From an uncultured Chlamydiae bacterium (GTDB lineage Bacteria; Chlamydiota; Chlamydiia; Chlamydiales; SM23-39), in contig CAWHDP010000002.1 in assembly GCA_963828125.1 (NCBI GenBank), positions 576,001-640,000 on the forward strand: 64,000 nt of DNA. The letters run 5' to 3'. Numbering within the stretch: the first letter of the stretch is position 1; every line of letters begins with the position of its first letter. The notes beneath the pieces were generated by a model, which saw only the letters and a list, made by a program, of their open reading frames with translations, was not told where the DNA came from and searched no databases. The translations under genes and the position numbers were made by a program. This document shows positions 3,564 to 50,492 of this stretch, piece after piece.

Positions 3564-3708
3564 GACACAATCGCGACACAGTTCGGCTCTATTTTGGTTA
3601 TGTCTGGCCAGCAGTCGACAGTTGAAAGGAAGGCGGTGGATGGGTTATTCTACTGCTGTGAGCAGCGAATGAGTGCTGCGGTTGGTGGTAAGTGCTGCGG
3701 ACTCATAA
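3564..3708 (+). repeat. Island arm (GACACA x2, 11-bp period) ending in a tRNA-CAT core cut at the anticodon loop
   Basis: Close match to 10950-11094. Ends GCTGCGGA-CTCATAA and then diverges from the tRNA 3' half. Confidence 0.85.
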
Positions 3709-4332
3709 GGAGAGAGTGGGTGCTCCTAAGGTTTGAAGAGTTGATTCCTCTTTGTCTTTTTCAGAAGATTTTTTCTCACAAATCACAAGACAACTATGTA
3801 ACAATTCCGCACCTAATTTTTTCATCCTTTCATCAATGCTCGGATATAACTTTTTAAGTAAAGGAACCACAAGTTTTTTCACCTTCATTCGCAAAACATA
3901 CCGTGTTTTACCTTCTAATCGAATCATTTCTACTTCACAGATATATCTAGTTGCATTCGGCCAGACGTGGTACTCAAATACAATTTTCGATTCCTTGTCA
4001 AAACAGGACAAAAACCCCTTAAACCCATATCCCTTTCGTATTCTTATTCTAACTGCACTACCTAACTTCAACGGCTGTTCAAAATCAACCCACTTGATCT
4101 TATTTCTATAGTTGAAATTCATAAATTTGTCAGGATCTGTCAAAAAAGACCAAACAACAGATGGATTTACGCAAGAATCTTCAAACACTTCTACGCATTG
4201 ATAAAACCTCTTATTCCATTGCCTTTCATTTTTTGATCTGCAAACAATCCAAAAAACAAGAGATTGAATAGAAATAATCAAAATAAACAACGGGATAAAA
4301 CCAACATAAGTAAACAGTTCAAAATAATTCAC
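3703..4332 (-). CDS. Membrane-anchored SRPBCC/START-like protein
   Basis: N-terminal hydrophobic helix, then VNPSVVWSFLTDPDKF and a C-terminal long helix typical of SRPBCC domains. Confidence 0.55.
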   Translation of the reverse strand: MNYFELFTYVGFIPLFILIISIQSLVFWIVCRSKNERQWNKRFYQCVEVFEDSCVNPSVVWSFLTDPDKFMNFNYRNKIKWVDFEQPLKLGSAVRIRIRKGYGFKGFLSCFDKESKIVFEYHVWPNATRYICEVEMIRLEGKTRYVLRMKVKKLVVPLLKKLYPSIDERMKKLGAELLHSCLVICEKKSSEKDKEESTLQTLGAPTLSL

Positions 4333-4349
4333 AGAACCTCAGATTCAAT

Positions 4350-5246
4350 TTAATTTTCCACATTTTCTACATTTGCCTGTAAAACAATCCCATTTTTACT
4401 ATAGATTTTCCATGGTTCAATTTTAGAATGGGTAAAAATTTCGAAAATATATCCATCTTCAAATTCCAATCTCACATCCATTCCAGAAGAATCAATACTC
4501 ACATTTTTTAAACTTTTTCCAATAAGATTAGATATTATGTTTCTAAGATCCTTTCCTCGTTCTTCCTTAAATCCAAAATAATAGTCCAATCTTCCTAGAT
4601 AATACTCGTTATTTTTAGTAAGTCTCCACGCGGCCGTTCCTAGATCGACAAGAAAATCATTTGATAGGATCAGTTTCGAAACCTTGTCTTTCTTATAAGA
4701 AATTTCATCTACTTTTTCCCCAAGGATCGGAAGATTCACTTGCGTGAACCGATCATTAATATTTATTTGTTTAGATAAAGATTGTAGAGATTTTATCGAT
4801 TCCTTCGTCGAGCAATCGATAACCATTTCAGAATCATTAGGAAGGAAGATAAGCCATTGGTTTTCAACAGAATAATTAAAAAACGTATTTATCTTATATC
4901 CATCCTCAAAATTCAATTCTATATCTAAGAATTGCGAAATAAAAAGCAAAGATTGAAACCGCTTTCCCAGCAATTTATCAAGAAATGATTGAATGCTAAT
5001 CTCAGGATTCTCATCAGATCCAGTAATATATCCATTGTGATGAGTAATTCTCCATGACGTCCAACTTAACCAAATACTCCATTCCTTCTGAGCGCTTTTT
5101 TTTCCATTAGGAAAGACATATTCCTTTTTCTTACCAAATTCAAAAAAAATATTAGAGCCAATCGAGTTAAATGTTCGATCCATCACCTGGTTAACAAGAC
5201 TCGTATTAATTAAATCGTAACAATGCAAAAACTGTTTATGATCCAC
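4350..5246 (-). CDS. Putative immunity protein for RHS toxin 5236..9729; internally duplicated domain
   Basis: Start overlaps the toxin stop; AT-rich; two similar halves (..WRI..LLGK..ELNFEDGYKINTF / ..WRL..LIGK..RLEFEDGYIFEIF). Confidence 0.7.
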   Translation of the reverse strand: MDHKQFLHCYDLINTSLVNQVMDRTFNSIGSNIFFEFGKKKEYVFPNGKKSAQKEWSIWLSWTSWRITHHNGYITGSDENPEISIQSFLDKLLGKRFQSLLFISQFLDIELNFEDGYKINTFFNYSVENQWLIFLPNDSEMVIDCSTKESIKSLQSLSKQININDRFTQVNLPILGEKVDEISYKKDKVSKLILSNDFLVDLGTAAWRLTKNNEYYLGRLDYYFGFKEERGKDLRNIISNLIGKSLKNVSIDSSGMDVRLEFEDGYIFEIFTHSKIEPWKIYSKNGIVLQANVENVEN

Positions 5247-8200
5247 CTAGCAACCAATATCCTTCTTCTACCATTTCATGATAACCATAACCTTGTCCTG
5301 TGACATGATCGTGAAACTTTCTCTCTTCTCTAGGATTTAATTTTCTTCCCAACTGTCTTTCAATCGCTTTTTTTGCATCTTCAGCCTGTTTATTTTGATC
5401 TGTATTTGATGTTGGCGTACCTGGATCATTTTTTGATATAGTATATGACCCACCTGTGCTGCGAGAGTCAAATGAAATATCTTGAGCATGATAAGTAGTT
5501 GTCGCAATCCCAAGACCCATTAACGCAGCGCCGGTGCTTGTTGTTAGTCCCAGGCCAAATGTAAATCCTCCAATGGTAACTACTTCAAGTGCGAAACCAC
5601 CAGCCATGATAGTTCCCCCTAAAACGATTTGGCCTAAGCCAAGAAGATATCCACCAACGCTTTCTCCATTAGGATCTTGATAAAGAAAAGGATTATTAAA
5701 AACATACTGATATAGATTAGAGTGATCCTCAGGACCAATCGGATCAGGAGTCAGCCAACGTCTCAAAGAGGGGTCATAATAGCGCTTACCAAAGTAGATA
5801 AGTCCTGTTTTAGGATCGTACCTCTTTCCTGCGTACGCATAGGGAATCTCCCCAGAAAGGCCAAATCCGAAAGCATCGCAATCATTTTGCTTGAAGATCT
5901 TCGTCTCTTTCCAATCAACGAGGAAGCGGGTGATCCCTTGAACATCTATGATCGGAGCATAAGGCGTTTGGTTAATCTCAATGGCTACAGGAGTAGCCAA
6001 TCCAGGAATTTTAAGCTCTTTAGGTTCTCCATTTTCAAACGCCCCTATTTCTTCATCGCCAATGTAAAGAAAAGCGGTCTGCCCTCTTTGAAGCCTTCTC
6101 CCTAGGGCATCGTATACGGATATTTCCCCTCCCGATTCAACGAGTTGATCAAATTCATCATAGACGAATCCGGGCCTGACGAGGTTTCCATTTAGGTCAT
6201 AGCTAAGCCCTTCGATTTGATTAAGAGCATCAACAGTCATCGACTGACCATTTAGCTCTTGGAGGTTGTAACGAACATCATAAACAGCCGTAAATCGTCC
6301 AGACTCGAACGTCATTTGCGACTGAGGATCATAGGTGTAACTGTAATCCCCCCGTCTAATTAGATTCCCGGATGGATTGTAGTCAGCGGTTTCTGCGTAA
6401 TATGGGGTATTGTGACTGACTTTTCTTCCCATTCGATCGTACTTGTAGTTTGTTTGGAAGAATCCTGTACTTAAGCGGGGATTGCCTCTTAAATCATGCT
6501 GATCGTAGGTATGGGAATACGCTTCAGTGCCATCGTTTGAAACCCTAGTGACTTTTTTCAGAAAAGGGCCCTCGTAATAATACGCGATTCGAGTCCGATC
6601 AGGCAATCTCCGCTCGAGAGGGCGATCCCAATCATCGTAATCACTTTCAATCCAAAGACCATTAGACCATTCTTCTCGCTTGATATTCCCAAAGGCGTCG
6701 AGCTTTCTAGAAAACCCTGTTCCCCCAATAATCCGATCCAACTCATCATATCGGAATTCCCGAGTTCCTACTTTTTCAAGACGCCACCCTGTATCATATT
6801 CGTGAAACAATACTGTCCCGTCGGGCTTTTGCTTGGTCAAAAGCCGATCGCCTGGTGTGTAGGTCCAATTCGTAGTTCGAGTACCAGCCTCTTTAATCGA
6901 CTGCCTTTTGCCGTTTAGCGTGTAACCAAAGGTAAGATGATCCTGTTTCTTTAAACGAAACAACTTATCGTACTCAAATTTCTCTACTACTTGGCCTGCC
7001 ACTTCCTTTTTCAATAGCCGCTGCTCTGGATTGTACGTCTCTACCGTCTCAAGGCCCATCGGGTCGGTAATCTTTTTTAAAAGAACTTGAGATCCTTTTT
7101 CATAGCGAATTTCGGTTTTATGACCTTCTGGATCAATCTTCTGAATTAAACGATTATGCACGTCAAAGTTAAGTGTAGTGAGCCCTCCTTGCTCTATAGT
7201 AGCGATATTACCGCCCCCATCGTAGGTCCAGAAAAAAGTAAGAACTCCATCTACCGATTTCTTACGTATCCTTCCTAAAGCGTCATTCGTATATTCAGTT
7301 CGACGCCCTCCTCTTTCTTCCCAGGCTAAAAAGCCGAGAGCATCGTAGCCAAAGCGACTAATCCGATTTTGACGCTTCTCTTCAATTTTTCTGCCCACGA
7401 GGTCATATTGGTACTCGGTGACAAAACCTGCGGCATCGATCGTCTCATAGAGATTGTAGCTGTCATTGTGGAAAATAGTAGTGGATTTGCCCACAGTTTT
7501 TTCTTTTGTACGACCGAGAGCATCGTAAAAGTAAGTTGTCACTAGCCCATCTGCATCTGTGTGAGATTTAAGCAGACCATTGGGGAAATAATCAAAAACC
7601 TCTTCTCCCCCACAGGGATGAATGATTTTGGCAACGTCGCCGTAACTGTTATAAGTTTTTAGAGTTTTGACCTTATACGGATCGATCCTCTCTTTTTCTC
7701 TTCCAAAGGCATCATAGACGATTTCTGTAATCGCAGATGGCTCTTCAATTCGGTCTGGCTTCCCATGAACAGGGTCATAATGGTACGTTACTTTATAGCC
7801 CAGATAGTCAATCTTCTCGATTAGCTCATCGGATACGTTGTAGTCAAATCGGGTCTCGTGATCACCCTCGTTGAGCACTTTAAGGCGACCTTTAGCATCG
7901 AATGTGCGTCTAATAACAAGTCCGTTTGAAAAAGGCTCTTCATAAAAGCACCGCCCCCTCGTGTCATATTTGTACGCGGCCACTTCTCCAACGGGGTTTG
8001 TTTCATCTAGCAGCTCCCCTTTTTCGTTATATGTTCGTTCAATGGTATAAGCGATTTTTCCGTCTGAACCATACCGTTCTTCTCTATTTGTATTCCCCCA
8101 CGCATCGTATCCATAACGGATCTTGTGGATAGGCTCGCCATTCCAATCTGTTTTTTCTTCCCATTCGACTCGATGCAAGTAGGGTCCAGTTTGGTAAAGG

Positions 8201-9729
8201 GTATAGATCGTTCTTAGCTTCCCCTCTTCCTCCTTTTGAATAAGATTATTAGCATCATCATAAGAATAAATGGTCTTTCGGAGCTGTTTGCCTGATTCCA
8301 AAGTCGTTTTAGAGATGACTAGCCGGGTATCGCCTAAATAGGTAAATGCGTACTGCAAACCATTATCATATTCTTCATGAATGACACGATTTTTATCGAA
8401 TTTACGCTTTATGCAAAAGACCCCGAAATCTCCTTCTGTTTTTTCCACAGTGGCATTTCCAGTAGCATCGCACTCGAATCGTTTTGCAATAAGAAGATTT
8501 CCCTCGCCGTCCAAAGTTTCTATGCTTTTGATGTGCTGCTTGTGGTCATATTCAAACGTTTTCTTGTTGACTAACTTGGCTCCAAACCAATTCTCAATCG
8601 CTTCTAGCAAAAAGAGTTTGTTGAAGCGATATACCGTTTGCACACCATCGGGATGAGTGACGGTCGTAGAACCGCTTTTTTCCCCTGCAATAGCTGGGTC
8701 ATAGGAAAAAGAAAATGAGCCTGAGGGATTCGAAAAAGTTTGAATACGAGAAGACACATTTTTGTTTTGAAAATAGGTACATGAGACAGGATAGTCTTTT
8801 GCATCATAGGAATTGAGAAGGGTCCTTTCGTTGTATCCAACTGTATTTGTGTAGACAGGATTTGAGCCCCTAGTCATTACTGGAAATCGAAAACTGGCCT
8901 TTTCCTTATAGCCATCTTTTTTGTACTCGCCTTTAATCTCTCGGGTCTCATAGACAAGATCCACTTCTCTTCCATCTGAAGCTAGATAATGATTGCCGCT
9001 GACTCTCGTTATTGAAGCATAAACAAATTGCCCGGTTGAGTCAGAAGATGTAATTTTGAAAAGTCCCTGATCGTTGTATTCATATCGAATCACTTTTCCA
9101 TTTGAGAGCAGCTCTCTTTCAAGCCGATAGACTCCTGGGTAACATTTGAAATATTGGCGTTGAATCCCATCAGGCCAAACAACTTTGACCAAATCCCCGT
9201 CTATCGAAAGCTCAATATTGCGAATATCGGCTGAACTAGTTGGATTCTCGCCTCTTAGGTTGCTGCACCCATAGGAATTGGTTTTTAAAATACCCTTGTT
9301 CCCTTGAATCTGAAATTCTAAAACGAACCCCTGTTGATCGCGCACTTGAAAGTAGGAGGAATTTCGGTTGTAGCCAGCCCAGAGATGAGGATTGACCACC
9401 CATCCCTTCGTTTCAAGCTGATGAAGGGCTTTCCCCAACATGAGCTGATCTAACTTATCTTTGTCTTCATAACGCCCCAGAATCTGAGGAGGCACGTAGG
9501 TTCTTTTCAAAAGAAGATCTTGAGCTCCTTTCACCAGCAGATCTATTTCGCTGATAGAAATCTGACCAGACGAAGCAGAAACATATCCATCGATTAAAAG
9601 ATCAGAAGCCAGAGAAAAAATTTCCTCAGACGAAGAAGGTATAACTTCATCAAAGGAGCCCGCAAAAAGACGAACTCCAAAACCTAAAATGAAAAACCAG
9701 CGCATAAAAATCCCTAAAAAAGAAGCCAT
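5236..9729 (-). CDS. RHS/YD-repeat polymorphic toxin (RHS-A)
   Basis: YD repeats; RHS core GKRYDPKTGLIYFGKRYYDP..RWLTPDP..NLYQYVFNNP..DPNG; Gly-rich hydrophobic pre-toxin segment; short C-terminal tip with QNKQ..FHDHVTGQGYGYHE. Confidence 0.95.
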   Translation of the reverse strand: MASFLGIFMRWFFILGFGVRLFAGSFDEVIPSSSEEIFSLASDLLIDGYVSASSGQISISEIDLLVKGAQDLLLKRTYVPPQILGRYEDKDKLDQLMLGKALHQLETKGWVVNPHLWAGYNRNSSYFQVRDQQGFVLEFQIQGNKGILKTNSYGCSNLRGENPTSSADIRNIELSIDGDLVKVVWPDGIQRQYFKCYPGVYRLERELLSNGKVIRYEYNDQGLFKITSSDSTGQFVYASITRVSGNHYLASDGREVDLVYETREIKGEYKKDGYKEKASFRFPVMTRGSNPVYTNTVGYNERTLLNSYDAKDYPVSCTYFQNKNVSSRIQTFSNPSGSFSFSYDPAIAGEKSGSTTVTHPDGVQTVYRFNKLFLLEAIENWFGAKLVNKKTFEYDHKQHIKSIETLDGEGNLLIAKRFECDATGNATVEKTEGDFGVFCIKRKFDKNRVIHEEYDNGLQYAFTYLGDTRLVISKTTLESGKQLRKTIYSYDDANNLIQKEEEGKLRTIYTLYQTGPYLHRVEWEEKTDWNGEPIHKIRYGYDAWGNTNREERYGSDGKIAYTIERTYNEKGELLDETNPVGEVAAYKYDTRGRCFYEEPFSNGLVIRRTFDAKGRLKVLNEGDHETRFDYNVSDELIEKIDYLGYKVTYHYDPVHGKPDRIEEPSAITEIVYDAFGREKERIDPYKVKTLKTYNSYGDVAKIIHPCGGEEVFDYFPNGLLKSHTDADGLVTTYFYDALGRTKEKTVGKSTTIFHNDSYNLYETIDAAGFVTEYQYDLVGRKIEEKRQNRISRFGYDALGFLAWEERGGRRTEYTNDALGRIRKKSVDGVLTFFWTYDGGGNIATIEQGGLTTLNFDVHNRLIQKIDPEGHKTEIRYEKGSQVLLKKITDPMGLETVETYNPEQRLLKKEVAGQVVEKFEYDKLFRLKKQDHLTFGYTLNGKRQSIKEAGTRTTNWTYTPGDRLLTKQKPDGTVLFHEYDTGWRLEKVGTREFRYDELDRIIGGTGFSRKLDAFGNIKREEWSNGLWIESDYDDWDRPLERRLPDRTRIAYYYEGPFLKKVTRVSNDGTEAYSHTYDQHDLRGNPRLSTGFFQTNYKYDRMGRKVSHNTPYYAETADYNPSGNLIRRGDYSYTYDPQSQMTFESGRFTAVYDVRYNLQELNGQSMTVDALNQIEGLSYDLNGNLVRPGFVYDEFDQLVESGGEISVYDALGRRLQRGQTAFLYIGDEEIGAFENGEPKELKIPGLATPVAIEINQTPYAPIIDVQGITRFLVDWKETKIFKQNDCDAFGFGLSGEIPYAYAGKRYDPKTGLIYFGKRYYDPSLRRWLTPDPIGPEDHSNLYQYVFNNPFLYQDPNGESVGGYLLGLGQIVLGGTIMAGGFALEVVTIGGFTFGLGLTTSTGAALMGLGIATTTYHAQDISFDSRSTGGSYTISKNDPGTPTSNTDQNKQAEDAKKAIERQLGRKLNPREERKFHDHVTGQGYGYHEMVEEGYWLLGGS

Positions 9730-9802: not shown

Positions 9803-10861
9803 TTATTTTTGCAAAACGGCTTCCTGCGCTACGAGTTTCTGTTCGCAGAAGTTGAAAACTGAGATATTACCATATTTACTGCAAGATAAAGAGTTCGAAT
9901 TAGGCGTCTCTTCGCTATTAGAAAATTCGGAAACTTTCTTTAGCAGAACAGTTATAGTGTTATGGCATATGATGTTTGCATCACTGCTCACTTGAATTTC
10001 TGATTGAATTTTTACAATAGGCTCAAAAAAATGCCATTCCGCTGGCATTAGCATTTGCTCTACCGCCAAACATTTACAAGAAATCGTCTCGTCTGCTGGC
10101 TGTATGTTTACTTGTATTTTCCCATCTCTTATCCGTTTCTCTGCTGAGACTTTAAGTACAGATCCATAAACATTGACCAAAGTGAAGCCTTCTCTTAAAT
10201 CTTGACCATGAGCTTTATAAAACGCATGTTCATCAAGAGGCTTGGTCTTTTTTAAAAACTCAGACCACATCTTTGAATCTTCTGCCGAAGAAGAGTGTTG
10301 ATTAGGAGGATAAATAAGCGCCGCACATAATACTTGACCGCCTTCATTAAGTCCTATCCAGGCTACATTGACTTCATCGTCATCCATCGTTGCATCCATG
10401 CTCATTACCGGATGGAGACCCCATTTCCACTTATTGATAACCCAATTCTTTATTCCTTGAGAGGCAAGATCAGAATCTGAGCCTTCATCCGAAAAACTAT
10501 TTTCATCGATTTGAGACACACTTAGGCTGACATCCACACGAATGACAGCTGATTTCAGATGAGATATTCCTTTTTCAAAGTAGGCTTCTAAGACATCTTT
10601 ATCTCCCCAATATACTTTACTCCAATCTTGAGGATGACGAAGTGCAACGAAATGAGCCGGCAGGCAAGGTTCAACCGCAGGCAATATCATGTAACCAGGC
10701 AAAAGCTTTTGGATCCTTAAATCTTCCCAAACTATGTCTCTTTCTACCACATTAGATACAACACCTGGATCATTAGAAATCGAAGTGTGAGAACAACTAG
10801 ATACAAGGGTCATTAGAAAAATGATCAATAGAATTCGCTTACACATTCCCTTATCGCTCAT
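9803..10861 (-). CDS. Putative lipoprotein
   Basis: Basic N-terminus, hydrophobic stretch and lipobox-like LVSSC. Confidence 0.65.
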   Translation of the reverse strand: MSDKGMCKRILLIIFLMTLVSSCSHTSISNDPGVVSNVVERDIVWEDLRIQKLLPGYMILPAVEPCLPAHFVALRHPQDWSKVYWGDKDVLEAYFEKGISHLKSAVIRVDVSLSVSQIDENSFSDEGSDSDLASQGIKNWVINKWKWGLHPVMSMDATMDDDEVNVAWIGLNEGGQVLCAALIYPPNQHSSSAEDSKMWSEFLKKTKPLDEHAFYKAHGQDLREGFTLVNVYGSVLKVSAEKRIRDGKIQVNIQPADETISCKCLAVEQMLMPAEWHFFEPIVKIQSEIQVSSDANIICHNTITVLLKKVSEFSNSEETPNSNSLSCSKYGNISVFNFCEQKLVAQEAVLQK

Positions 10862-10949: not shown

Positions 10950-11082
10950 AACACACTTGAGACACAGTTCGACCCTATTCTGCTTAACTCTGGACAGCAG
11001 CCAGTAGTTGAGCGAAAGGGAACTGATGGGTTATTCTACTGCTGTGAGCAGCGAATGAGTGCTGCGGTTGATGGTAAGTACG
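10950..11082 (+). repeat. Class-1 island arm ((A/G)ACACA x2, 11-bp period)
   Basis: Homologous to 3564-3695 and directly precedes the tRNA-derived core. Confidence 0.8.
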
Positions 11083-11129: not shown

Positions 11130-11296
11130 CATTTCTTCCCGAGTTTATCACACTAAAAATGAGCTGGTTATGCAATAACACCAAAATCAGCTCAAAGTGC
11201 GATTTCTCTCCGTGGACCATTTGTGGACCACTCGCCTACAACAATTGGCGATAAGCCTAGCAGCTAACCTTTGAAAATTAAAACCAAAGGTAGCTC

Positions 11297-11963
11297 GTGA
11301 AAGGCATCGACAAACGCACCCACAAAGACGGGACGGTTTCTTACCGCGCCCGCGTTCGCATCAAAGGTCATCCAGTCCTCATCCAATCTTTCTCTTCCAA
11401 AACACTCGCCATGAAATGGAAGCGCGATACTGAATCGGCTGTTGAACGAGGCACTTTCTCTTATGAGAAACCAGGGACCAGACATACCCTCTCCGAACTG
11501 ATCGATCGCTATATCGAAAAAGTTTTACCTACCAAACCGAAGAACGCCCGCAAAAATCTCTAAACCGAGAATTTCGAATGAGCGCACCCGCTTCCTAAGC
11601 GATGAAGAACGAACAAGGCTCATTAAAGTATGCCAAGAGAGCGAATCAAAAGGACTCTACCCTGTTGTTATACTAGCTCTTTCGACAGGAATGAGGCGCG
11701 GCGAAATTCTCAATCTCAGATGGAGCGATGTCGATTTAGACCGAGGGGCGATTCTTTTGCAGACCACCAAAAATGGAGAACGCCGTTTTATCCCTCTTGT
11801 TGGGATTGCGCTAGATCTGCTCAAATCCCGACATATCAAGCAGTCTGCAAATTCTCTTGTATTCCCTGCGCCACATTGTCCATCAAAGCCAATCGATCTT
11901 CGTTCTGCGTGGGAAACTGCGCTCGAAAAAGCAAACATTTCCAACTTTCGATTCGATTCCTAA
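11297..11963 (+). pseudogene. Tyrosine integrase, internally deleted and 3'-truncated
   Basis: N-terminal arm-binding part (YRARVRIKG..AMKWKRD), then TGMRRGEILNLRW..TKNG.., ending NFRFDS where HxxR should follow. Confidence 0.85.
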
Positions 11964-12652
11964 CTATGCCGGTTTCATGGAAAGGCACTATTGCCCAATA
12001 CGTGGGCAGACTTCATCGCCTTCACGCAGATAAAAAGGAAGTCCAAGTGTATGATTATGCAGATCTTGGGGTGCCTATTCTCGAAAAGATGTTCAACCGA
12101 AGATGCCAAGGATATGAAGCTGTTGGTTACAAGATCCTTCTCCCCGCCAGCGCCATTCCTGGATGGCCTGCAGAAGTGCCTCTTCCCGTCGATCCTGCGT
12201 GGAAAGCAGATTATGCAGGCAGCGTGAAAAGACTGGTACGCGATGGAATCGATCTTCCTTTAGCTCACCTCTTTATCCAAGTTGCGACTATTTTGCCTCA
12301 TGAAGCAGAAGGAATAGATCGAGCCCGAAGTGCTAGCGAAAGATTTTTATTTCAGAGGTTGGACACACTTCCTCAAACTAAAGGGTTGTTCCGCCTAAAT
12401 GTGGAACTGGATATTCCTTTTGATGGTTGGGGTCGAATGGAGGTTGATCTCGTATGTAGTACACTAAAACTCGCCATTGAAATCGATGGAAGCCAACACC
12501 TCAGCTCTGTTGAAGCTTATCGCAGAGACCGACGAAAAGATACTTTGCTCCAAGAAAACGGCTACAAAGTACTTCGATTTCTGGCTGAAGATGTAGGTAA
12601 ATGCCTTGATGATGTCCTGGACACAATCTTACGCGTTTTAAGCTCACATTAA
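11955..12652 (+). pseudogene. 3' fragment of a superfamily-2 helicase fused to a DUF559/Vsr-like endonuclease
   Basis: MPVSWKGTIAQYVGRLHR..VYDYAD (helicase motif VI region), then EVDL..LAIEIDGSQH..RDRRKD..GYKVLRF. 5' part replaced by integrase sequence. Confidence 0.75.
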
Positions 12653-12741
12653 CAGCATATGGCCAAACCAGATCTTCATTTACAATAGATCAAAATAAGA
12701 ACTTCCCTTATCATTTTTTCTTCAATAACAGGGGCCTGTAT

Positions 12742-39944: not shown

Positions 39945-40654
39945 TTCTTGTCTCTAGTTGATTTCTTGGTCGAAGGGTTTGTAAGTTTACTACGTCCCTT
40001 TGAAAACGCTTCTATTTGTCGAGGAGTCGAATGCGGACAGGAGATCTCATAAGCATCCGTAGCGCGTCGCCCAACAAAATTACTCCAAGCATCGGTCTTG
40101 TTGAATGCAGCAACCTGGTCGAGCAATATGCTCACTCCGCTTTCTACATCCGTCCAAAAGTGCATTGATGCGGCCTCCGCCATTTTTTTGATTGTTTTCG
40201 GATCGATTCCCAATGTCTCGGCGTAGGTCTTGATCGCAAAGACTAAAGTAGAGTCCCATTGAGAGGCGAGTAATACGCCATTCTCGTAACTTTTCCTCCC
40301 AATCTCGCCAAACATGGAGCTTGGAACAGACAAACTAGATTCGATCGAATCGATGATTTTGGACTTATTGCAGCAGAGCGCTCCAGTCCAAAGATCTACA
40401 TCTTGTCCTCCGTCAAATTTTCCCCAAATAATAGGACCTGCTAAATCTCCCTTGTTTTTGATGACGATGCAATGGAGTTCCCTCCAGATGGCCCTTCTAG
40501 GAGACATCATCACAGGAGTTGATTGCTCCTTGCCTTTCACCTTGCGGATCTGAGTTGATATTGCGACCTCTCTAAATGAGGGATAGGGACGATATGTCAA
40601 GCCATTAGCGATGATCATGCTGCGCTGATCCAACAAGAAAATGGACCGGCTTAC

Positions 40655-42030: not shown

Positions 42031-42816
42031 CGGCTTACTGGCAGTAACCGTCCTAGATATGTTTCAGTAGCATTTTTGATAGAAGCGTCATCATCTTGAG
42101 AGCGAGGCATATCTTCCCAAACCGGAACTCCCCAGTTTCCTTCACCATGAACCAATTGACTGTCATCCTTGGTGATTAGATTGCTGTGAATGGTGCCGAT
42201 AAGATTATTTTCTCTGATGACAGCGTGAATGATACTCCCGGAACAAGGAGCGTGAATACTAGAGCCTTTGAGTGGCTTACCATTCCATAGACAAACTCCG
42301 ATTAGACTGCCGGGAGCAAAACACTGGAATGAAAGGAGTGTAAGAGCCAGCCGTTCCTTTGAAATCGTTCGAGATGGTGCAGTAGCAGCGTTATCGAAGA
42401 GAGTGTGATTATTTCCTGAGGCAAGTGCCAGGTCGAGCTTACTGGTTTCCGCTTTTGCACTGAGAACTTCATCGCCTCCCTCTTTTTTGGATTTTTTCTT
42501 TGTTTTACTGTTATCGAGCGAAAGACCTTCCAGTTGTAGAAATCGAGTGCGCTCTCCGAATAATTCAAATTTATCGCTGAACTTTTGTAAATAGCTCTGG
42601 GAGAGAGACGCAATTTGCTCTCGGCATTTCCCCCATTCATCATAAGTTTTTGGACCGTTTAAAGCGGCTTGTGCCACACAGATCAGCAAGCGCATAACGG
42701 ATATTCGCTCATGCGGCAACGCATTCAAATCACGTATTTTATGGCCTAGAGCAAATGCATCATCCAGGCTTACCAGAGAAGTTTTTCCATCTTGAAAAAC
42801 AATAGGTATCCAGGGA

Positions 42817-43895
42817 TCATTCACAAGATTCATCTTCAAAATCCATATTCGTTGTTTTTATAGGGTTGGATCGAGAGCAAATAGTTATGCCTTCATCTAT
42901 GCTCCAGAAAAGCTGAGTGCGATCATTGGGTTCTGCAAAGATCGCCTCGTTCTTATCTACAATTGCCACTGCGCAACACCCTTGCACATAGCCAGCGAAC
43001 CCATCAGGTCGTTGAGCGCACGCCGCTGTGACAGCCCTATGCGGTAGGCGAACAAGGTTTTCGTGAATTGCGCGAGCGATATCCACACGTCTATCACCCG
43101 GATAAATCGTAAATTCTTTCCCATACAAAGGCATTATCTGTATGCCCTGATCGGTTCGTTTGATTGTTTTGACGAGGAGAAGAGATGCTGTTAATTGATC
43201 GCCCCATCGCGTTGCAATACCTTCGTTTTCCGTATCGTCTAGAGTCGGATCTGCTTCGACACGTGCGACGGACGCAGCAATAGCCCTCATTTCAGCACAT
43301 CGCTCTTGAATTTCATTGAAAAACTTTCTCCAGGCAGCAGGCTCTGGTTTAATGGAAATATTCGAGTACGTTCCATGTCTCAGGAAACAACGTGGATCGA
43401 TCTGGTCTTTCATGTCTCCACAATCGTCCGATACGCTGAAATAACATGTCGGTTGGCGCTATATCAGTGATGAGGAAATCGGCATCGATATCGATACTTT
43501 GTTCCACAATTTGAGTTGAAACAAGCACACATCCACGAGGTCGCTTTTCACTGGATTTACCTAGACACTCTATCCACTTTTCTTCCAACTGCTCGCGGCG
43601 CCAATAAGGGAAGCGGCTATGAAGTAGACCTATTTCGGGGTCATTTTCACCTTGGATTGCCTTTAGTTCGCGCCAAGACTCCTGAGCTTCTGCTACGGTA
43701 TTTCGAATCCAAAGAACGCAAGCCCCCTTTTTTGCCCGTTCTAAACATTCGGTAGCTAATTGAGGGACAGACTGAGTTACATACTTTATGCAGATATCTT
43801 TAGGCTTTGGTGCTTCAATCTCAGACTCAATCACACAGCCATCTGAATACGCCGCTGAGAGAAGGGGATACGAGGTCGAAAGTCGATCAGGAGCA
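42817..43895 (-). pseudogene. cas3: Cas3 helicase, C-terminal fragment (frameshifted, 5' part lost)
   Basis: WIRNTVAEAQ, LLHSRF, VSTQIVEQSIDIDADFLITDIAPTDMLFQRIGRLWRH; immediately upstream of cse1. Confidence 0.9.
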
Positions 43896-44040
43896 ATAGC
43901 CGCAGCACAGGGCGCTTCCAATATGGAACTTCGTACTGCCATGGGACACAAAACTCTTCAGATGCTTTATGGTGTTATCTGCCTCATTTCCGCGCTGTGT
44001 TATTATGATCTAACAGATCAAATCATGAGAGAATTTTGGA
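43896..44040 (+). pseudogene. Fused micro-fragments of integrase (43896-43967) and abiEi (43969-44040)
   Basis: AAAQGASNMELRTAMGHKTLQML followed by 72 nt nearly identical to 37529-37600. Confidence 0.8.
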
Positions 44041-45253: not shown

Positions 45254-45898
45254 CTATTCAAGATCAGAAAATCTTTTCCATACAACAAATCCTTCCATAT
45301 CGTAAGCACCGATTACAATCAGAGTTGCCTTTAAAGCAATGTTTTGTAACTGCTCAGAAGTCACATTTAAATCGAATCCAGAATTTGTCTCTGAAATAAT
45401 ATTCATGTAATACCATTGAGCATCTGAATAATGAATCATCTTTTCTGCAATTTCTTGAGAGAATTCACCTTCCTTGATGTATAGATAAACCTCTTCATGA
45501 AAATAAAAAATATACTTCTTTATCTCCGATCTAATCGGATCCGATCTATGATGGACCATATCTTCAAAAAAGCAAGATTGCCCTGGCTGTAATATACTTT
45601 TTAAATAAAGAGCTAATTGATGAACAGAATGTGCTTTTTTTCTACCAGGATATAATCCCCCTTGAAAAAAGACATCCTCTAATGGATTTACTGCCAATAT
45701 GCCCCCAGCTTGGAATTCATGAATTTTTGTTCTATCCGCTGAGGGGTGAAGTAAAGCAAAAAATGAACCTTCCTTAAAGTCGAGGTTCATCAATAATTCT
45801 CGTGCTAAAGTGTGTCCATCTTGAAGTTGATCCGTTACATATCGAAATGTCTGTTCAAATTTCAATGGAAATATTTTTATTTCTACATTCACTGCCAA
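45254..45898 (-). CDS. Putative immunity protein for RHS-D
   Basis: Start overlaps the toxin stop; AT-rich; ends IGAYDMEGFVVW. Confidence 0.75.
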   Translation of the reverse strand: MAVNVEIKIFPLKFEQTFRYVTDQLQDGHTLARELLMNLDFKEGSFFALLHPSADRTKIHEFQAGGILAVNPLEDVFFQGGLYPGRKKAHSVHQLALYLKSILQPGQSCFFEDMVHHRSDPIRSEIKKYIFYFHEEVYLYIKEGEFSQEIAEKMIHYSDAQWYYMNIISETNSGFDLNVTSEQLQNIALKATLIVIGAYDMEGFVVWKRFSDLE

Positions 45899-48800
45899 CT
45901 CCCATTAGGAAATAAATCATAAGGAATTCCATTGGGATCTTTATATCCCCAGTGGGGACCTTTTGGATCTGGGTGCCACAAGTCGGGATGAAGTTTTTCT
46001 CCTGTATCAGGATTCAACCAATTGCCCTTGCCACTTTCTGGAGAACCTTTGCCTCGCCATTCAAAACCCTCTCCAGGACATTTTGATGGATCAGATCCTA
46101 AATCTTCTCCATTAAAGCGGGGCGGTTGTTTGGTCGCTTCTTTCCATTGCGGAGCATAAACATCAGTATTTTTCCAAGAGATATTAGGCGCTTTTATATC
46201 TTGCGCATGACAAGCAGTCGTTGCGAGCCCAAGTCCCATTAAAGCTAGTCCAGTCTTCGTTGTCACTCCCAACCCGACAGTGAATCCACCAATGGTAGCC
46301 ACCTCAAGGGCAAAACCACCCGCTATAATAGCTCCCCCTAAAACAATTTCCCCTAATCCAAGAAGATACCCTCCAACACTTTCTCCAGTAGGATCTTGAT
46401 AACGAAAGGGATTATTGAAAACGTACTGGTACAGATTTGAATGATCCTCAGCTCCAATTGGATCTGGAGTCAACCAACGTCTTAAAGTGGGATCATAATA
46501 ACGCTTACCGAAGTAGACTAGTCCTATTTTAGGATCATACCTCTTTCCAGCATACGCATAGGGAATCTGTTCAGAAAGACCTAATCCGAAAACATCGCAA
46601 TCATTCTGCTTGAAGATCTCCGTTGTTTTCCAATCAATGAGGAAGCGGGTGATCCCTTGGACATCCACTATCGGAGCGTAAGGCGTTTTGTTAATTTCAA
46701 TAGCTACAGGAGTAGAGAGTCCAGGAATTTTAAGCTCTTTAGGCTCTCCGTTTTCAAAAGCTCCTATTTCTTCATCGCCAATAGAGAGAAAAGCAGTCTG
46801 TCCTCTTTGAAACCTCCTTCCTAGAGCATCGTATACGGATGTTTCCCCTCCCGATTCAATTAGTTGGTCAAACTCATCATAGACAAATCCGGGCCTGACG
46901 AAGTTTCCATTTAGATCATAGCTAAGCCCTGCGATTTGATTAAGGGCATCAACAGTCATCGACTGACCATTTAACTCTTGGAGGTTGTAGTGAAGGTCAT
47001 AAACGGCCGTAAATCGTCCAGACTCGGAGGTCATTTGCGACTGTGAATCATAGGTGTAACTGGTATCTCCTCTTCTAACGAGATTCCCGGATGGATTATA
47101 GGCGGCAGTTTCTGTGTAATAAGGGGTATTTTGGCTGATTTTTCTTCCCATTCGATCATATTCGAAATTTGTTTGGAAAAATCCTGTACTTAAGCGAGGA
47201 TTGCCTTTTGGATCATATCGATCGTAGGTATGGGAATAAGCTTCAGTGCCATTTTCAGAAACTCTAGTAACCATTTTCAGGAAAGGGCCTTCATAATGGT
47301 ATTCGATTCGAGTTTGATCAGGCAGTCTTCGCATTAAGGGACGATCCCAATCATCATACTCGCTCTCTTGCCACAGACCATTAGACCATTCTTCTCGCTG
47401 GATATTCCCGAAAGCATCGAATTTTCTCGAAAACCCCGTTCCCCCGATCACTCGATCCAGCGCATCATATCGAAATTCCCGAGTTCCCTCTTTTTCAAGG
47501 CGTCCCTGAGTATCATATTCATGAAGTATTACGGTTCCGTCGGGCTTTTGTTTGATCAAAAGTCGATCGCCTGGAGTATAGGTCCAATTGGTGGTTCGAG
47601 TCCCCGCCTCCTTAATCGATTGCTTTTTTCCGTTTAGCGTGTAATCAAATGTAAGATGATCCTGTTTCTTTAAACGAAAAAGCTTATCATACTCAAACTC
47701 CGCTACTACCTGACCGGCCACTTCCTTTTTCAATAACTGCCCTTGAGGATTATAAGTCTCGACTGTCTCGATTCCCATCGGGTCTGTAATCTTTGTCAAG
47801 AGAGTTTGAGGTCCCTTTTCGTAGCGGATCTTAAGTCTATGACCTTCTGCATCGGTTTTCTGAGTCAGACGATCGTGGGCATCATAATGGAATGTTGTGA
47901 TCCCACCTTGCTCAATGGTGGCGACATTACCCCCCTCATCATAGGTCCAAAGAAAAGTCAGAGCGTTATCCACTGATTTCTCTCGTATCCGCCCTAACGA
48001 GTCGTTCGTATATTCGATTCGACGTCCCCCTCTCTCTTCCCAAGCTAAGAACCCAAGAGGATCATAGCCATAGCGGCTAATCCGATTTTGGCGTTTCTCC
48101 TCAATTTTTCGGCCTACGAGATCATATTGATACTCGGTGACAAAACCTTCGGCATCGATCATTTTATAGAGATTGTAGCTATCATTGTGGAAGGTGGTGG
48201 TAGCTTCACCCACTGTTTTTTCTTTTATGCGGCTGAGAGCATCATAGGTGTAAGCGGTTACTAGCCCATCTGCATCTGTATGGGATTTGAGCAGGCCGTT
48301 AGGGAAGTAATCGAACACCTCTTCTCCCCCACAGGGATGAAGGATGGTTGTGAGACAGCCGTAGCTGTTGTAAGTTTTTGCAGTTTTGATCTTATATGGA
48401 TCGATTTTCTCTTTTTCTCTTCCAAAGGCATCAAAGATGATTTCTGTGATGGCCGAGGGCTCTTCGATCCGATCTGGTTTCCCATGCACAGGGTCGTAAT
48501 GATACGTTATTGTATAGCCCAGGTAATCTGTCTTTTCGATCAGCTCATCGGATGCATTGTAGTCAAATCGAGTCTCTTGTTCGCCCTCATTGAGGACTTT
48601 AAGGCGACCTTTTGTATCGAATGTGCGTCTAATGATGAGGCCGTTTGAAACGGGTTCTTCATAAAAACATCTGCCTCTTGGGTCATATTGATAAGAAGCC
48701 AGCTCTCCAATGGGGTTCGTTTGATTAAGGAGTTCCCCTTTTTCATTATAGATTCGCTCAATAGTGTAACCGATTTTTCCATCTGAACCAAAATGCTCTT

Positions 48801-50448
48801 CCCTATTCGTATTCCCCCAAATATCGTATCCATAGTGAATTTTATGGATAAGGTCGCCCTTCCAATCGCTTTTTTCCTCCCACTCAACTCGATGCAAATG
48901 AGGATGGCTCTGATAAAGGGTATAGGTTGTTCTTGTCTTCCCTTCTTCCTCTTTTTGCATGAGATTGTTGGCATTATCATAAGAATAGATTGTCCTTCGG
49001 AGCTGTTTACCTGATTCCAAAGTCGTTTTAGAAGTGATAAGTCGCGTGTCGCCTAAGTATGTAAATGCATACGCAAGGCCATCGTCGTATTCTTCAAAAA
49101 TAAGGCGGTTCTTATCGAATTTACGCCTTATGCCAAAAACCCCGAAATCTCCTTCGGCTTTTTCTAGAGTAGCATTTCCAGCAGCATCGCATTCGAATCG
49201 TTTGGCGATGAGAAGCTTGCCCTCCCCATCTAGGGTTTCTATGCTTTTGATGTGTTGCTTGTGATCATACTCGAAGGTTTTCCTATTGACTTGCTTGCCC
49301 TTAAACCAATTTTCGATTGCCTCCAGCAGTAAAAACTTATTGAACCGGTATACAGTTTGCACGCCATCTGGATGAATGACCGTTGTGGAGCCGCTTTTTT
49401 TTCCTGCAACAGCTGGGTCATAAGAAAAGGAAAAAGATGCTGAAGGATTCGAAAAGGTTTGAATACGAGAAGGCACGTTTTTATTTTGAAAATAGGTACA
49501 CGCGACTGGATAGTCCTTTGCATCATAAGAATTGAGAAGAGTTCTCTCGTTGTACCCAACGGTATTTGTATAAACAGGGTTTGATCCTCTAGTCATTACT
49601 GGAAATTGAAAACTAGCCTTCTCCTTATAGCCATCTTTTTTGTATTCGCCTTTAATCTCTCTGGTCTCATACACAAGATCGACTTTTCTTCCATCTGAAC
49701 CTAAATAATGGTTACCGCTGACTCTCGTTATTGAAGCATAAACAAGTTGTCCGGTTGGATCAGATGATAAAATTTTGAATAGTCCCTGATCGTTGTACTC
49801 ATATCGAATTACCTTTCCATTTGAGAGCAACTCTTTTTCAAGCCGATAGATTCCTGCATACCGTTTAGAATATTGGCGCTGAACCCCATCCGGCCAAACG
49901 ACCTTTACCAAATTACCCTCTACGAGAAGCTCGATGTTGCGAATATCGGCTGAACTAGTTGGATTCTCTCCCCTCAGATTGCTGCATCCAAAAGAGCTAG
50001 TTTTTAGAACGCCCTTATTTCCTTGAATCTGAAACTCTAAAACAAAACCCTGCGGATCGCGAACTTGAAAATAGCTGGAATTACGGTTATAGCCAGCCCA
50101 AAGATGTGGATTGACAACCCATCCTCTTGTTTCAAGCTGATGAAGAGCCTTGCCCAACATGAGTTGATCTAACTTATCTTTATCTTCATAGCGACCAAAA
50201 ATCTGGGGCGGTACATAGGTCCTTTTCAAAAGAAGATCTTGAGCTCCCCTTACTTGCAGATCTATTTCGCTGATAGAAATCTGACCAGACGAAGCAGAAA
50301 CATATCCATCAATTAAAAAATCAGAAGTCAGAGAAAAAATTTCCTCTGGAGAAGAAGGCGTAACATCATCAAAAGAGCCTGCAAAGAGACGAGCCCCAAA
50401 ACCCACAATGAAAAACCAGCGCATAAAAAATCCTAAAAAAGAAACCAT
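45889..50448 (-). CDS. RHS toxin (RHS-D), paralog of RHS-A with an Ntox37-like tip
   Basis: Colinear with 5236..9729 up to HAQDI. Tip PGEGFEWRG..GNWLNPDTGEKLHPDLWH..GPHW resembles polymorphic toxin 37 (recognised from memory). Confidence 0.92.
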   Translation of the reverse strand: MVSFLGFFMRWFFIVGFGARLFAGSFDDVTPSSPEEIFSLTSDFLIDGYVSASSGQISISEIDLQVRGAQDLLLKRTYVPPQIFGRYEDKDKLDQLMLGKALHQLETRGWVVNPHLWAGYNRNSSYFQVRDPQGFVLEFQIQGNKGVLKTSSFGCSNLRGENPTSSADIRNIELLVEGNLVKVVWPDGVQRQYSKRYAGIYRLEKELLSNGKVIRYEYNDQGLFKILSSDPTGQLVYASITRVSGNHYLGSDGRKVDLVYETREIKGEYKKDGYKEKASFQFPVMTRGSNPVYTNTVGYNERTLLNSYDAKDYPVACTYFQNKNVPSRIQTFSNPSASFSFSYDPAVAGKKSGSTTVIHPDGVQTVYRFNKFLLLEAIENWFKGKQVNRKTFEYDHKQHIKSIETLDGEGKLLIAKRFECDAAGNATLEKAEGDFGVFGIRRKFDKNRLIFEEYDDGLAYAFTYLGDTRLITSKTTLESGKQLRRTIYSYDNANNLMQKEEEGKTRTTYTLYQSHPHLHRVEWEEKSDWKGDLIHKIHYGYDIWGNTNREEHFGSDGKIGYTIERIYNEKGELLNQTNPIGELASYQYDPRGRCFYEEPVSNGLIIRRTFDTKGRLKVLNEGEQETRFDYNASDELIEKTDYLGYTITYHYDPVHGKPDRIEEPSAITEIIFDAFGREKEKIDPYKIKTAKTYNSYGCLTTILHPCGGEEVFDYFPNGLLKSHTDADGLVTAYTYDALSRIKEKTVGEATTTFHNDSYNLYKMIDAEGFVTEYQYDLVGRKIEEKRQNRISRYGYDPLGFLAWEERGGRRIEYTNDSLGRIREKSVDNALTFLWTYDEGGNVATIEQGGITTFHYDAHDRLTQKTDAEGHRLKIRYEKGPQTLLTKITDPMGIETVETYNPQGQLLKKEVAGQVVAEFEYDKLFRLKKQDHLTFDYTLNGKKQSIKEAGTRTTNWTYTPGDRLLIKQKPDGTVILHEYDTQGRLEKEGTREFRYDALDRVIGGTGFSRKFDAFGNIQREEWSNGLWQESEYDDWDRPLMRRLPDQTRIEYHYEGPFLKMVTRVSENGTEAYSHTYDRYDPKGNPRLSTGFFQTNFEYDRMGRKISQNTPYYTETAAYNPSGNLVRRGDTSYTYDSQSQMTSESGRFTAVYDLHYNLQELNGQSMTVDALNQIAGLSYDLNGNFVRPGFVYDEFDQLIESGGETSVYDALGRRFQRGQTAFLSIGDEEIGAFENGEPKELKIPGLSTPVAIEINKTPYAPIVDVQGITRFLIDWKTTEIFKQNDCDVFGLGLSEQIPYAYAGKRYDPKIGLVYFGKRYYDPTLRRWLTPDPIGAEDHSNLYQYVFNNPFRYQDPTGESVGGYLLGLGEIVLGGAIIAGGFALEVATIGGFTVGLGVTTKTGLALMGLGLATTACHAQDIKAPNISWKNTDVYAPQWKEATKQPPRFNGEDLGSDPSKCPGEGFEWRGKGSPESGKGNWLNPDTGEKLHPDLWHPDPKGPHWGYKDPNGIPYDLFPNGSWQ

Positions 50449-50492
50449 CCTAAGATAGTCAAGAAATTGTGTAAAGAACGACCAACTAGAGA

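Follow-up and report, generated by a model that had tools for sequence, protein, structure and literature searches.

A probable decayed stack of tyrosine-integrase islands at a tRNA-CAT gene of an environmental chlamydia, with likely toxin-immunity pairs among its cargo

The 64,000-nucleotide stretch analysed here (the window) belongs to an uncultured soil (environmental) chlamydia, genome G000 (95% complete). It is probably the decayed middle of several different islands stacked at one tRNA-CAT gene, with RHS or lipase-like genes and their partners left at the right ends as likely toxin-immunity cargo (table 1). In the mechanism that we propose, each island would bring a lambda-type tyrosine integrase, and each integration would rebuild the tRNA and displace a 3' half outward, so that unrelated islands pile up. 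Deletions and insertion sequence (IS) activity would then have removed island middles and joined left ends to unrelated right ends. Cassettes beside a right arm would have survived this decay; the loss of immunity or weapons may be costly.

Table 1. Features of the array by window position (aa, amino acids).
Position	Strand	Feature
209..3306		Right-hand cargo of first (tRNA-proximal, A-type) element: AbiEii, DUF3800 protein, 207-aa gene of no assigned family
3564..3582	+	A-type right-end arm, GACACA x2, 11-bp spacing
3698-3708	+	Partial att core, ends just past anticodon loop
3703..5246	-	Gene pair downstream of RHS-A: 298 aa (weak DUF6188 match), 209 aa (AHSA1-like)
5236..9729	-	RHS-A, 1497 aa, signal-peptide-like N-terminus
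9803..10861	-	352-aa lipoprotein-like gene between RHS-A and arm, no known function
10951..10969	+	A-type right-end arm, degenerate
11084-11129	+	att core, identical to intact tRNA
11212..11230	+	B-type left-end arm, GTGGACCA x2
11297..11960	+	B-type integrase, frameshifted and truncated
11956..15115	+	Defence-type cargo: DUF559 nuclease fragment, 328-aa gene of no assigned family, AlbA_2/HATPase protein
15371..17171	-	485-aa protein and 133-aa membrane partner; end cargo of B-type element 11084-17358
17230..17248	+	B-type right-end arm, match to 11212
17358-17405	+	att core, T arm with 2-nt insertion
17490..18152	+	C-type left-end arm, CGGTGCA x2; C-type integrase, truncated (193 aa)
18319..19679	-	Orphan cassette: RHS-B C-terminal part (96% identical) with second lipoprotein partner
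19798..20319	-	RHS-B partner, 173 aa, lipoprotein-like
20316..28793	-	RHS-B, 2825 aa, DUF6531 and RHS core; end cargo of B-type element
28881..28899	+	B-type right-end arm
29009-29054	+	att core, called by ARAGORN as 67-nt pseudo-tRNA
29138..30294	+	C-type left-end arm; integrase of 357 aa, the only intact one in the window
30448..36505	-	RHS-C, 1835 aa, tip a DUF687-like hydrolase; lipoprotein-like partner, 192 aa
36590..37186	+	E-type right-end arm (TTTCCGCA type) fused to C-type integrase 3' half
37285..38369	+	AbiEi/AbiEii pair; toxin gene interrupted by IS701-family element (38339-39618)
39429..43951	-	Remnant of type I-E cas genes: 3' part of cas3, split cse1, partial cse2
43863..44040	+	35-codon integrase remnant and 72-bp AbiEi fragment, then ISAs1 (44036-45025)
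45254..50448	-	RHS-D, 1519 aa, and 214-aa partner; A-type end cargo
50493..52055	-	1563-bp IS-like element, truncating the array's right end

The intact tRNA, its displaced copies and the arm repeats

A sequence-only reading of this DNA had predicted that an intact cognate tRNA would lie left of the window, and a tRNA-CAT gene, likely a tRNA-Ile2, is indeed found 12 kb away at G000:C2:563979-564054. Together with the integrase of the first, A-type element, a whole one at C2:564241, it spans G000:C2:563979-565314. The full att core is the 46-bp 3' part of tRNA-CAT, from anticodon stem to acceptor end. The proposed unit of tRNA 3' half, arm repeats and integrase was confirmed at the cores at 11084, 17358 and 29009, the first of which equals the intact tRNA over 46/46 nt (BLAST E 2e-17) and is thus not a chance match. 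Sequence identity among the att copies begins at the 7-bp anticodon loop. The intact tRNA and its displaced 3' fragments share one orientation, as in tandem tRNA islands, and PF00589 integrases lie beside their own cores; those at 29221 and left of the window are whole, and those at 11297 and 17571 are broken. The stacking of tyrosine-integrase islands at one tRNA was likewise borne out.

The gene at 29221-30294 (PF00589 E 9e-32, catalytic motifs present) is the only whole integrase in the window. The C-type integrase at 17571 ends at 193 aa, and the further remnants that had been suspected are real, at about 36693-37186 and 43863-43967. An integron was considered and rejected: TIGR02249 scores 42 bits against a cut-off of 265, and every unit brings an integrase and a tRNA core of its own.

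At +115-130 nt of each full core stands an 11-bp-spaced direct repeat, followed by integrase sequence. These arm repeats had been described as recurring; each full core does have one, but they differ from unit to unit. The GTGGACCA repeat lies 3' of the core at 11084, but 5' of those at 17358 and 29009. Since the arm at 17230 matches that at 11212, 11084-17358 is the sole in-window unit with matching arms; within the window, no C-type right arm was found downstream of 29138..30294. Among related genomes, which are statistically non-independent, the left arm motif equals the next right arm motif in 19 of the 23 elements with both arms called and differs in four (10,000 shuffles: mean 7.4, maximum 16). 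By this pairing, each toxin pair lies at the right end of the element that has its integrase to the left of the pair, and the earlier assignment of each pair to the integrase that it faces is abandoned. At least four integrase subtypes occur in G000, 35-40% identical and each with its own arm repeat (grouped by a quick tree, made for grouping only and without tycheposon integrases). We infer that each subtype binds its own repeat, while the 7-bp anticodon loop would be the crossover site for all of them. Such a natural set, with one crossover site and different arm repeats, is useful for studies of arm recognition and possibly offers tools for chlamydial genetics.

Decay of the array and support for the assembly

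Left ends are fused to unrelated right ends at 18152, 30435 and 36690. The C-type integrase at 17490..18152 is joined to RHS-B-family DNA by deletion. No core is left between the E-type arm and the C-type integrase 3' half at 36590..37186, and this fusion is also the result of deletion. As mismatched arms mark fused units, most in-window units are, by their arm sequences, deletion chimeras, and their small size is best explained by deletion. Most are probably unable now to excise on their own; B-armed units might manage this only if a B integrase were supplied intact from elsewhere in the genome. A whole B-type integrase lies at C1:432407.

The defence cargo is similarly worn. What had been called a cas operon does contain cas genes, but only as a cas3'-cse1-cse2' remnant cut by insertion sequences, with a Mutator-family IS (40653-42030) interrupting cse1. 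Protochlamydia naegleriophila is known to have type I-E cas genes, according to the available text of PMC5010888. The DUF559 nuclease fragment is 74% identical in nucleotides to a TOTE-family gene at 429-432 kb of contig C1. The terminal IS-like element has no target duplication at 50493..52055; an identical copy on C1 and the flank where it now sits show a perfect 9-bp target duplication. An origin of the terminal IS in a junction with the second array on C1 was considered because the arms would match, and was set aside as unproven.

No primase of the six families used for relatives' cargo was found in the window. F-type TraC has no match in G000 and no relaxase is among the Pfam matches of window proteins and recurring cargo, which led us to reject an ICE or IME. 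No terminase small subunit was recognised in the window and no helper phage is known; a transfer route for the islands was not found.

It is barely credible that the repeated junctions are an assembly artefact. Contig C2 does start with a chimeric 17.7 kb of about 63% GC, joined inside the array-ending IS, and short-read contigs from the public run X1, which may be the source sample, end at the repeated 46-bp cores and at insertion sequences, leaving the junctions unbridged. Yet core and arm sequences differ and every unit is unique; the X1 contigs reproduce the unique stretches (11337-17258, 17376-18196, 29026-30211 and 30406-37096) at an even, single-copy depth of about 12, with 0-2 differing letters per stretch; and equivalent arrays stand in the single-contig genomes G257 and G232.

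Candidate toxin-immunity cargo

The minus-strand RHS genes, the 485-aa protein with its partner and the orphan C-terminal/partner pair are as the first reading described them. Each of the four RHS genes has an RHS-associated core (TIGR03696) and a small downstream gene, and YD repeats and core precede a variable tip. RHS-A and RHS-D share a common body (85% identical) with unrelated tips and different partners, so the partner changes with the tip; the pair at 18319-19679 is an orphan cassette. The RHS-A tip falls in no known family and found nothing above 0.77 in the ESM Atlas; the 298-aa gene, by its position, is its candidate immunity gene. RHS-D, whose own arm and core are missing, has a weak tip match to Ntox37 (E 0.013, below cut-off). 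RHS-C and its partner are the end cargo of an E-type element.

RHS-B has a signal-peptide-like N-terminus and ends in an alpha/beta-hydrolase in which Ser, Asp and His are conserved. Its tip is modelled by AlphaFold at pLDDT 90, with alpha/beta-hydrolases as Foldseek matches, and across 38 sequences Ser113, Asp161/167 and His192 show conservation of at least 90%. The fold together with the triad residues favours the prediction that the tip is a hydrolase. Searched with the hydrolase alignment, PDB sequences gave only matches at E>=0.03, to plant alpha/beta-hydrolases. The 485-aa protein combines DUF3892 with a DUF687-like alpha/beta-hydrolase, its N-terminal part matching unnamed or DUF3892 clusters in the ESM Atlas. 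In the portion of PMC11878206 at hand, the DUF687 family of Chlamydia is classed as catalytically dead; in contrast, the triad residues are conserved in the window's tips. The 173-aa partner of RHS-B is a candidate periplasmic immunity protein, and the lipoprotein partner family of the DUF687-like tip has no immunity match in Pfam or NCBIfam.

Judged from sequence, toxin-immunity cargo is the likely role of the RHS and lipase-like genes and their small partners. VgrG (TIGR03361) and PAAR (PF05488) have 0 matches in the 95%-complete genome, and RHS effectors delivered by a type VI secretion system (T6SS) were therefore rejected as a reading; the type II secretion (T2SS) ATPase GspE is present. 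Export of the RHS proteins would probably run via Sec/T2SS, and a lipase or nuclease-like domain would be released from the C-terminus; lipoprotein partners may guard the periplasm against it.

Chlamydiae are obligate intracellular bacteria, and the RHS and hydrolase proteins might instead be effectors or adhesins directed at the protist host or the inclusion membrane, with the downstream genes as chaperones. We consider this unlikely. The best match in Foldseek, the Legionella effector RavL, is only 13% identical, and DUF687 is present in Chlamydia proper (PMC11878206, as far as its available text goes); however, a common body with swapped tips, orphan tip/partner pairs and many diverged partners form an interbacterial pattern, and lipoprotein-like partners would shield the producer's own envelope.

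With the toxin-immunity reading, interbacterial competition in chlamydiae becomes testable, with a new candidate family of lipase toxins and lipoprotein immunity proteins. As a tentative extension, chlamydiae that share a protist host could fight each other or co-resident bacteria there, using RHS-lipase weapons exported through Sec/T2SS and lipoproteins for immunity. Arm-orthogonal integrases at one tRNA-Ile2 site would trade the weapons between families, the right-arm slot would capture a cassette, and decay would keep the toxin-immunity ends, giving a growing arsenal and an immunity memory.

Relatives, spread and known systems

By a hand count, 73 of 301 genomes of the order have at least two copies of the core pattern and 27 at least three. 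Integrase clades recur across chlamydial families, the B type being 90.6-93.8% identical in family f7 and the D type 90% in family f44. Viral contigs yielded no relative of the C integrase and a single 29% match to a B integrase, and none of their 120 core-pattern loci had a chlamydial acceptor end or a close relative of the integrases, RHS proteins or 485-aa protein.

We tabulated the cargo of 49 core-to-core elements (median 9.6 kb, up to 42 kb) from 26 relatives. It consists chiefly of defence, toxin-antitoxin (TA), resistance-type or metabolic genes: defence or TA genes occur in 30 elements, primase/helicase genes in 15, and RHS or lipase-like (485-aa type) genes in seven. Thirteen of the 23 elements with a full integrase have primase/helicase genes, the usual order in whole islands being integrase, primase/helicase module and variable cargo. 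One recurring cargo family (five genomes) matches terminase small subunit PHROGs.

The sequence-only reading had seen one family of minimal, toxin-specialised cassettes, an integrase with a toxin-immunity pair, stacking like an integron array; this now looks quite improbable. G000 is unusually toxin-rich: nine of its 18 RHS cores lie with these att features, and at five of its ten non-tRNA cores an RHS or 485-aa gene begins, antisense, within 1.5 kb. The same geometry occurs in G257, G232, G005, G010 and G146, and a 6.4-kb core-to-core unit of G010 holds little besides an RHS gene. The claimed enrichment in toxin cargo thus stands for G000 but largely fails beside homologous integrases elsewhere. 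In relatives the geometry is seen at only 6 of 57 non-tRNA cores; among the best loci per genome, some with short upstream stretches, an antisense core lies within 1.5 kb upstream of 1 of 29 RHS-B, 0 of 29 RHS-A and 2 of 29 485-aa homologues. Moreover, the single contig of G232 has five cores and its one RHS core elsewhere, no RHS match was found in G296 and G191 despite their arrays, and a seven-copy tRNA-Asn array of G000 lacks RHS and 485-aa genes. With several subtypes, different arms, larger elements in relatives and arms that mark the window's units as chimeras, the minimal cassette is largely refuted as a general rule.

How the RHS cassettes reached the stack bears on another alternative, in which the stack is only a safe landing zone and the cassettes came or multiplied chiefly by IS and homologous recombination. 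The region is rich in IS, most RHS homologues in the order lie away from att sites, and a 99.4% identical RHS-B copy on C1 is IS-flanked, so IS-driven duplication also moves cassettes. Nevertheless, this account is highly improbable as the main route. The B arm accompanies RHS-B homologues of 91-92% identity in G257, in G289 (one repeat) and on two metagenome contigs with one shared junction; the arm is absent beside the homologue in G176 and beside the more distant homologues examined. The same arm in another family's genomes implies element-borne transfer, and on these sequences one RHS cassette likely moved on such an element. Furthermore, RHS-C-type genes adjoin E- or B-type arms in G010, G257 and G005, and the cassettes keep one orientation at a constant 220-230 nt from the core. 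Between families, integrases are 90-94% identical and a 2825-aa RHS protein 91-92%; this is evidence, precise to the base, that genes have recently passed between families of obligate intracellular bacteria, which had long been regarded as genetically isolated.

The stack of different islands that we favour has parallels. The tycheposons of Prochlorococcus, in the available part of their description (10.1101/2020.12.28.424599), are likewise tyrosine-integrase elements at tRNAs, including a CAT-anticodon tRNA, with a primase/helicase module and cargo and without conjugation genes, whose successive insertions push older elements out, leaving broken integrases and partial tRNAs. The combination of integrase, replication module and cargo is found in the 13 of 23 relatives' elements and not in the window. 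The chlamydial elements may work like tycheposons, a likeness of layout, integrase kinship aside. They differ in host phylum, in the large secreted RHS/lipase-immunity pairs among their cargo, and in placing several arm-distinct subtypes on one tRNA, whereas each tRNA has its own integrase cluster among tycheposons.

The stacking process itself is already known. In the consulted text of PMC4383910, the members of Islander tandem tDNA islands each have their own integrase and tRNA fragment, with an anticodon-centred crossover (site A). Its survey of 2168 genomes counted 125 tandems of at least two islands and four of at least three, versus the 27 of 301 genomes with at least three copies of one tRNA core here; its main text leaves chlamydiae unmentioned. 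The account of Vibrio cholerae Aux3 available to us (PMC7721734) also has integrase-mobilised interbacterial effectors, truncated and grounded with the weapon kept. Aux3 is prophage-like, T6SS-dependent and single, unlike the multi-element stack here, with signal-peptide-bearing RHS proteins and no VgrG or PAAR found.

RHS body, variable tip, adjacent immunity gene and orphans are shared with polymorphic RHS systems (Zhang et al., PMC3482391), a source that, in the part available, lists chlamydiae among carriers of several toxin domains and in whose first 300,000 characters the word "integrase" is absent; the DUF687-like hydrolase tip and its lipoprotein partner family set the present pairs apart from what is described there. 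Environmental chlamydiae have other tRNA-linked integrase islands, Pam100G (PMC548262) and PnaK_GI1/GI2 (PMC5010888); in the available text of these papers they lie at other tRNAs (Gly, Thr), Pam100G carries an F-type tra operon, and neither RHS genes nor a multi-integrase stack are described. Our literature search, with most subscription papers and supplements outside its scope, met no description of the array or of RHS cargo on chlamydial tRNA islands. These islands may be entered, without a name, in the TIGER/Islander database.

Arm repeats and element boundaries

The array is real. We re-found the cores (displaced 3' parts of tRNA-CAT), arms, integrase pieces, RHS genes and partners (small genes downstream, candidate immunity) where the sequence-only reading had placed them, and the intact cognate tRNA that it expected left of the window lies 12 kb away, followed by a whole integrase. 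Short-read contigs recovered unique stretches of the window with the depth of a single copy; for RHS-B the depth is double, in line with its 99.4% twin on C1. These contigs do not span cores.

Some 115-130 nt past a core and 130-137 nt ahead of a core lie 7-9-bp direct repeats with an 11-bp spacing, whose motif tracks the integrase subtype (A, GACACA; B, GTGGACCA; C, CGGTGCA; D, ATGCACA; E, TTTCCGCA). We compared 35 regions from 30 relatives, picked by core pattern or close integrase and not by toxins. Both arms were called in 23 core-to-core elements, and in 19 of these the left and right motifs agree, against a shuffled mean of 7.4 and maximum of 16, the relatives being kin and so not independent. 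The arrangement argues for the element order core, left arm, integrase, cargo, right arm, core. Since arms match across core-to-core elements, a minus-strand toxin goes with the integrase to its left and not with the one its 5' end faces. Some att copies match the tRNA from exactly the anticodon loop onwards, the crossover that the Islander paper (PMC4383910) describes as site A.

A single unit in the window has matching arms. Because the arms show the window units to be fused or broken (table), their minimal appearance is best read as decay. The damaged core variant, also seen among C1 cores, occurs four times in the genome, and nearly the same variant is found in two genus mates.

Positions of features in the window, which spans C2:576001-640000, and elsewhere on contigs C1 and C2 of the genome under study
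Location	Position	Feature
C2	563979-564054	intact tRNA-CAT
C2	570069-575478	first element: Hsp70-like gene, unknown gene, AAA ATPase cassette
Window	11084-17358	unit with matching arms (B); integrase frameshifted
Window	17358-17405	damaged core variant, 2-nt insertion in T arm
Window	17358-29009	C left end joined to B right end
Window	29009	start of C element joined to E right end bearing RHS-C
Window	36693	next C integrase, into which the core of that E right end is deleted
Window	39429-43951	type I-E cas remnant
Window	50493	IS cutting the A-type flank of RHS-D
Window	52057-52300	frame, presumably large serine recombinase tail-like
Window	52273, 56347, 57168	three related 52-bp repeats, minus strand
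Window	52769-52845	group II intron 3' remnant with maturase fragment
Window	59384-59467	tRNA-Tyr
C1	444482, 433682, 426589, 407757, 122702 (partial)	further core copies
C2	1289308	further core copy
C1	263153-317042	tRNA-Asn array
C1; C2	389000-445412; 17737-24000	second array
C1	136051	remainder of cse2
C2	1-17736	likely chimeric contaminant

Cargo of the elements across the order

Stacking at the core is order-wide: by hand count, at least two copies of the core pattern occur in 73 of 301 genomes and at least three in 27, the genome under study having the most (eight). Toxin cargo is not the rule. The 49 core-to-core elements delimited in 26 genomes (median 9.6 kb) include 23 with a full integrase at the left end, 15 with a primase/helicase (DUF927, DUF3987, DUF5906, DnaG-type or AAA_25; PHROG primase matches) and 30 with defence or TA genes. 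RHS or 485-aa-type (DUF3892 plus DUF687-like hydrolase) genes are present in seven, a count that covers these two families only; four of the seven are antisense and adjoin the right core. Single-genome ORFs are mostly unannotated. Of six checked among the large unclassified ones, two encode PKS/NRPS, two are of restriction-helicase type, one is a STAND protein and one has no match. Antisense toxins start within 1.5 kb of a non-tRNA core in 6/57 cases in relatives versus 5/10 here. The converse test, which took each genome's best locus, found an antisense core within 1.5 kb upstream of 1/29 RHS-B, 0/29 RHS-A and 2/29 485-aa homologues, several upstream stretches being short; the 485-aa family adds three cases in which the core is oppositely oriented and two with nothing but an arm. 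The proposal of a minimal element family specialised in toxins finds no support.

The genome under study is an outlier in toxin content. Of its 18 RHS cores, seven fall in the arrays of the window and of C1, regions that make up about 5% of the genome by boundaries drawn post hoc, and two further ones adjoin stray B arms. Arrays of four relatives (G232, G314, G296, G191) have no RHS core inside among the matches listed, and the tRNA-Asn array of the genome itself has no RHS or 485-aa gene; that array has seven displaced 3' copies with primase and TA cargo. Displaced copies also occur at Thr(CGT) (four), Phe (three) and Leu(TAA) (two). The genome contains about 22 pieces of the integrase family, which are found at further sites too: tRNA-Leu, Lys, Thr, Phe and Asn, and near tmRNA.

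Other cargo includes a hybrid PKS/NRPS cluster within a B-type element of the G232 array (L018-L019). Inside B-type elements we also found an antisense module of four genes, in seven copies (L014, L016, L018, L019, L021, L046, L052; genomes G257, G232, G084, G282). It consists of a 378-381-aa integrase clade and three unknown genes, has one conserved end, which lies directly upstream of the integrase, and is possibly an element parasitising these islands. The Hsp70-like cassette of the first element recurs in G200.

RHS and hydrolase cassettes and their probable transfer

By eye, the N-termini of all four RHS proteins are signal-peptide-like. GspE is present in the genome (2.37 Mb, 95% complete), in which VgrG and PAAR were not found. 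RHS-A and RHS-D are 85% identical along a common body of 1358 aa, and their tips and partners are unrelated. The RHS-A tip gave no match; that of RHS-D has a weak one to Ntox37 (E 0.013), below the cut-off. The 485-aa protein, RHS-C, RHS-B and the RHS-B orphan all contain a DUF687-like domain, in which Ser, Asp and His are conserved and for which an alpha/beta-hydrolase fold is predicted (pLDDT 90; TM about 0.45-0.55 against esterases and cutinases). The Chlamydia DUF687 family is termed inactive in PMC11878206. The RHS-B and RHS-C partners belong to a large family (164 matches) with lipoprotein-like N-termini and a near-invariant Cys, as expected of candidate periplasmic immunity to a lipase, by analogy with Tle/Tli lipase-immunity pairs.

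Two family f7 genomes have B-type integrases at 90.6% and 93.8% identity, and family f44 has a D-type one at 90%. Three f7 genomes encode RHS-B homologues with 91-92% identity over the N-terminal 500 aa, and the 90% cluster of RHS-B takes in a Ca. Rhabdochlamydia sp. T3358 protein. A B arm follows RHS-B in G257 (with core), G289 (one repeat) and metagenome loci L285 and L286, whose identical junction has the core deleted into a C integrase; none follows the homologue in G176 or homologues at most 83% identical. The simplest reading would be that RHS-B was captured once at the right end of a B element and then spread. IS elements also duplicate these cassettes. No vehicle came to light: F-type TraC was not found in the genome, and viral contigs yielded no close relative.

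The tycheposon island-growth model (bioRxiv 10.1101/2020.12.28.424599) and Islander tandems (PMC4383910) describe the same process as the chlamydial stack, and Vibrio Aux3 (PMC7721734), a weapon-bearing element that was grounded, is akin to the situation here. No paper describing these arrays, or RHS genes as their cargo, emerged from the literature searches. Three points are new: an arm code of several subtypes operates at a single site, stacks are frequent throughout the order, and a cassette of RHS and predicted lipase has probably been traded.

Host, assembly and neighbouring regions

DUF687 matches and close proteins from Rhabdochlamydia, Simkania and Simkaniaceae would make the host an environmental chlamydia; the sequencing runs best matching the window are soil metagenomes of one study, and the public run X1 may be the source sample. 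Under the identity rules for CAT tRNAs, the array tRNA is likely tRNA-Ile2, because the other two in the genome have initiator features and an elongator-like acceptor stem, respectively. The AlbA gene may contain single-base assembly errors, since one base is absent from short-read contigs at window 14022 (three runs) and 15086 (two runs). At 11294 one contig, which may derive from the C1 paralogue, has an extra base. The first 17.7 kb of C2 (about 60-66% GC, with a NifH-like gene) are joined within an IS copy to chlamydial DNA of 40-43% GC, and the end of C1 and C2:17737 are two halves of one IS.

The second array is fragmentary: it has four tRNA-CAT cores but no intact tRNA, integrases of types A, B, D and E, and homologues of RHS-A, RHS-B, RHS-C and the 485-aa protein. 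It probably belonged to the same stack and was displaced from it. Right of the first array, the 52-bp repeats resemble, by eye, a degenerate copy of the 3' end of tRNA-Tyr, and a Pfam search of the recombinase-like frame gave no match; possibly, a second island stack is growing in from the right of the window. No second cas3 or cse1 copy was found elsewhere in the genome. The remainder of cse2 lies across an IS701 junction, a split left by an IS-mediated rearrangement.
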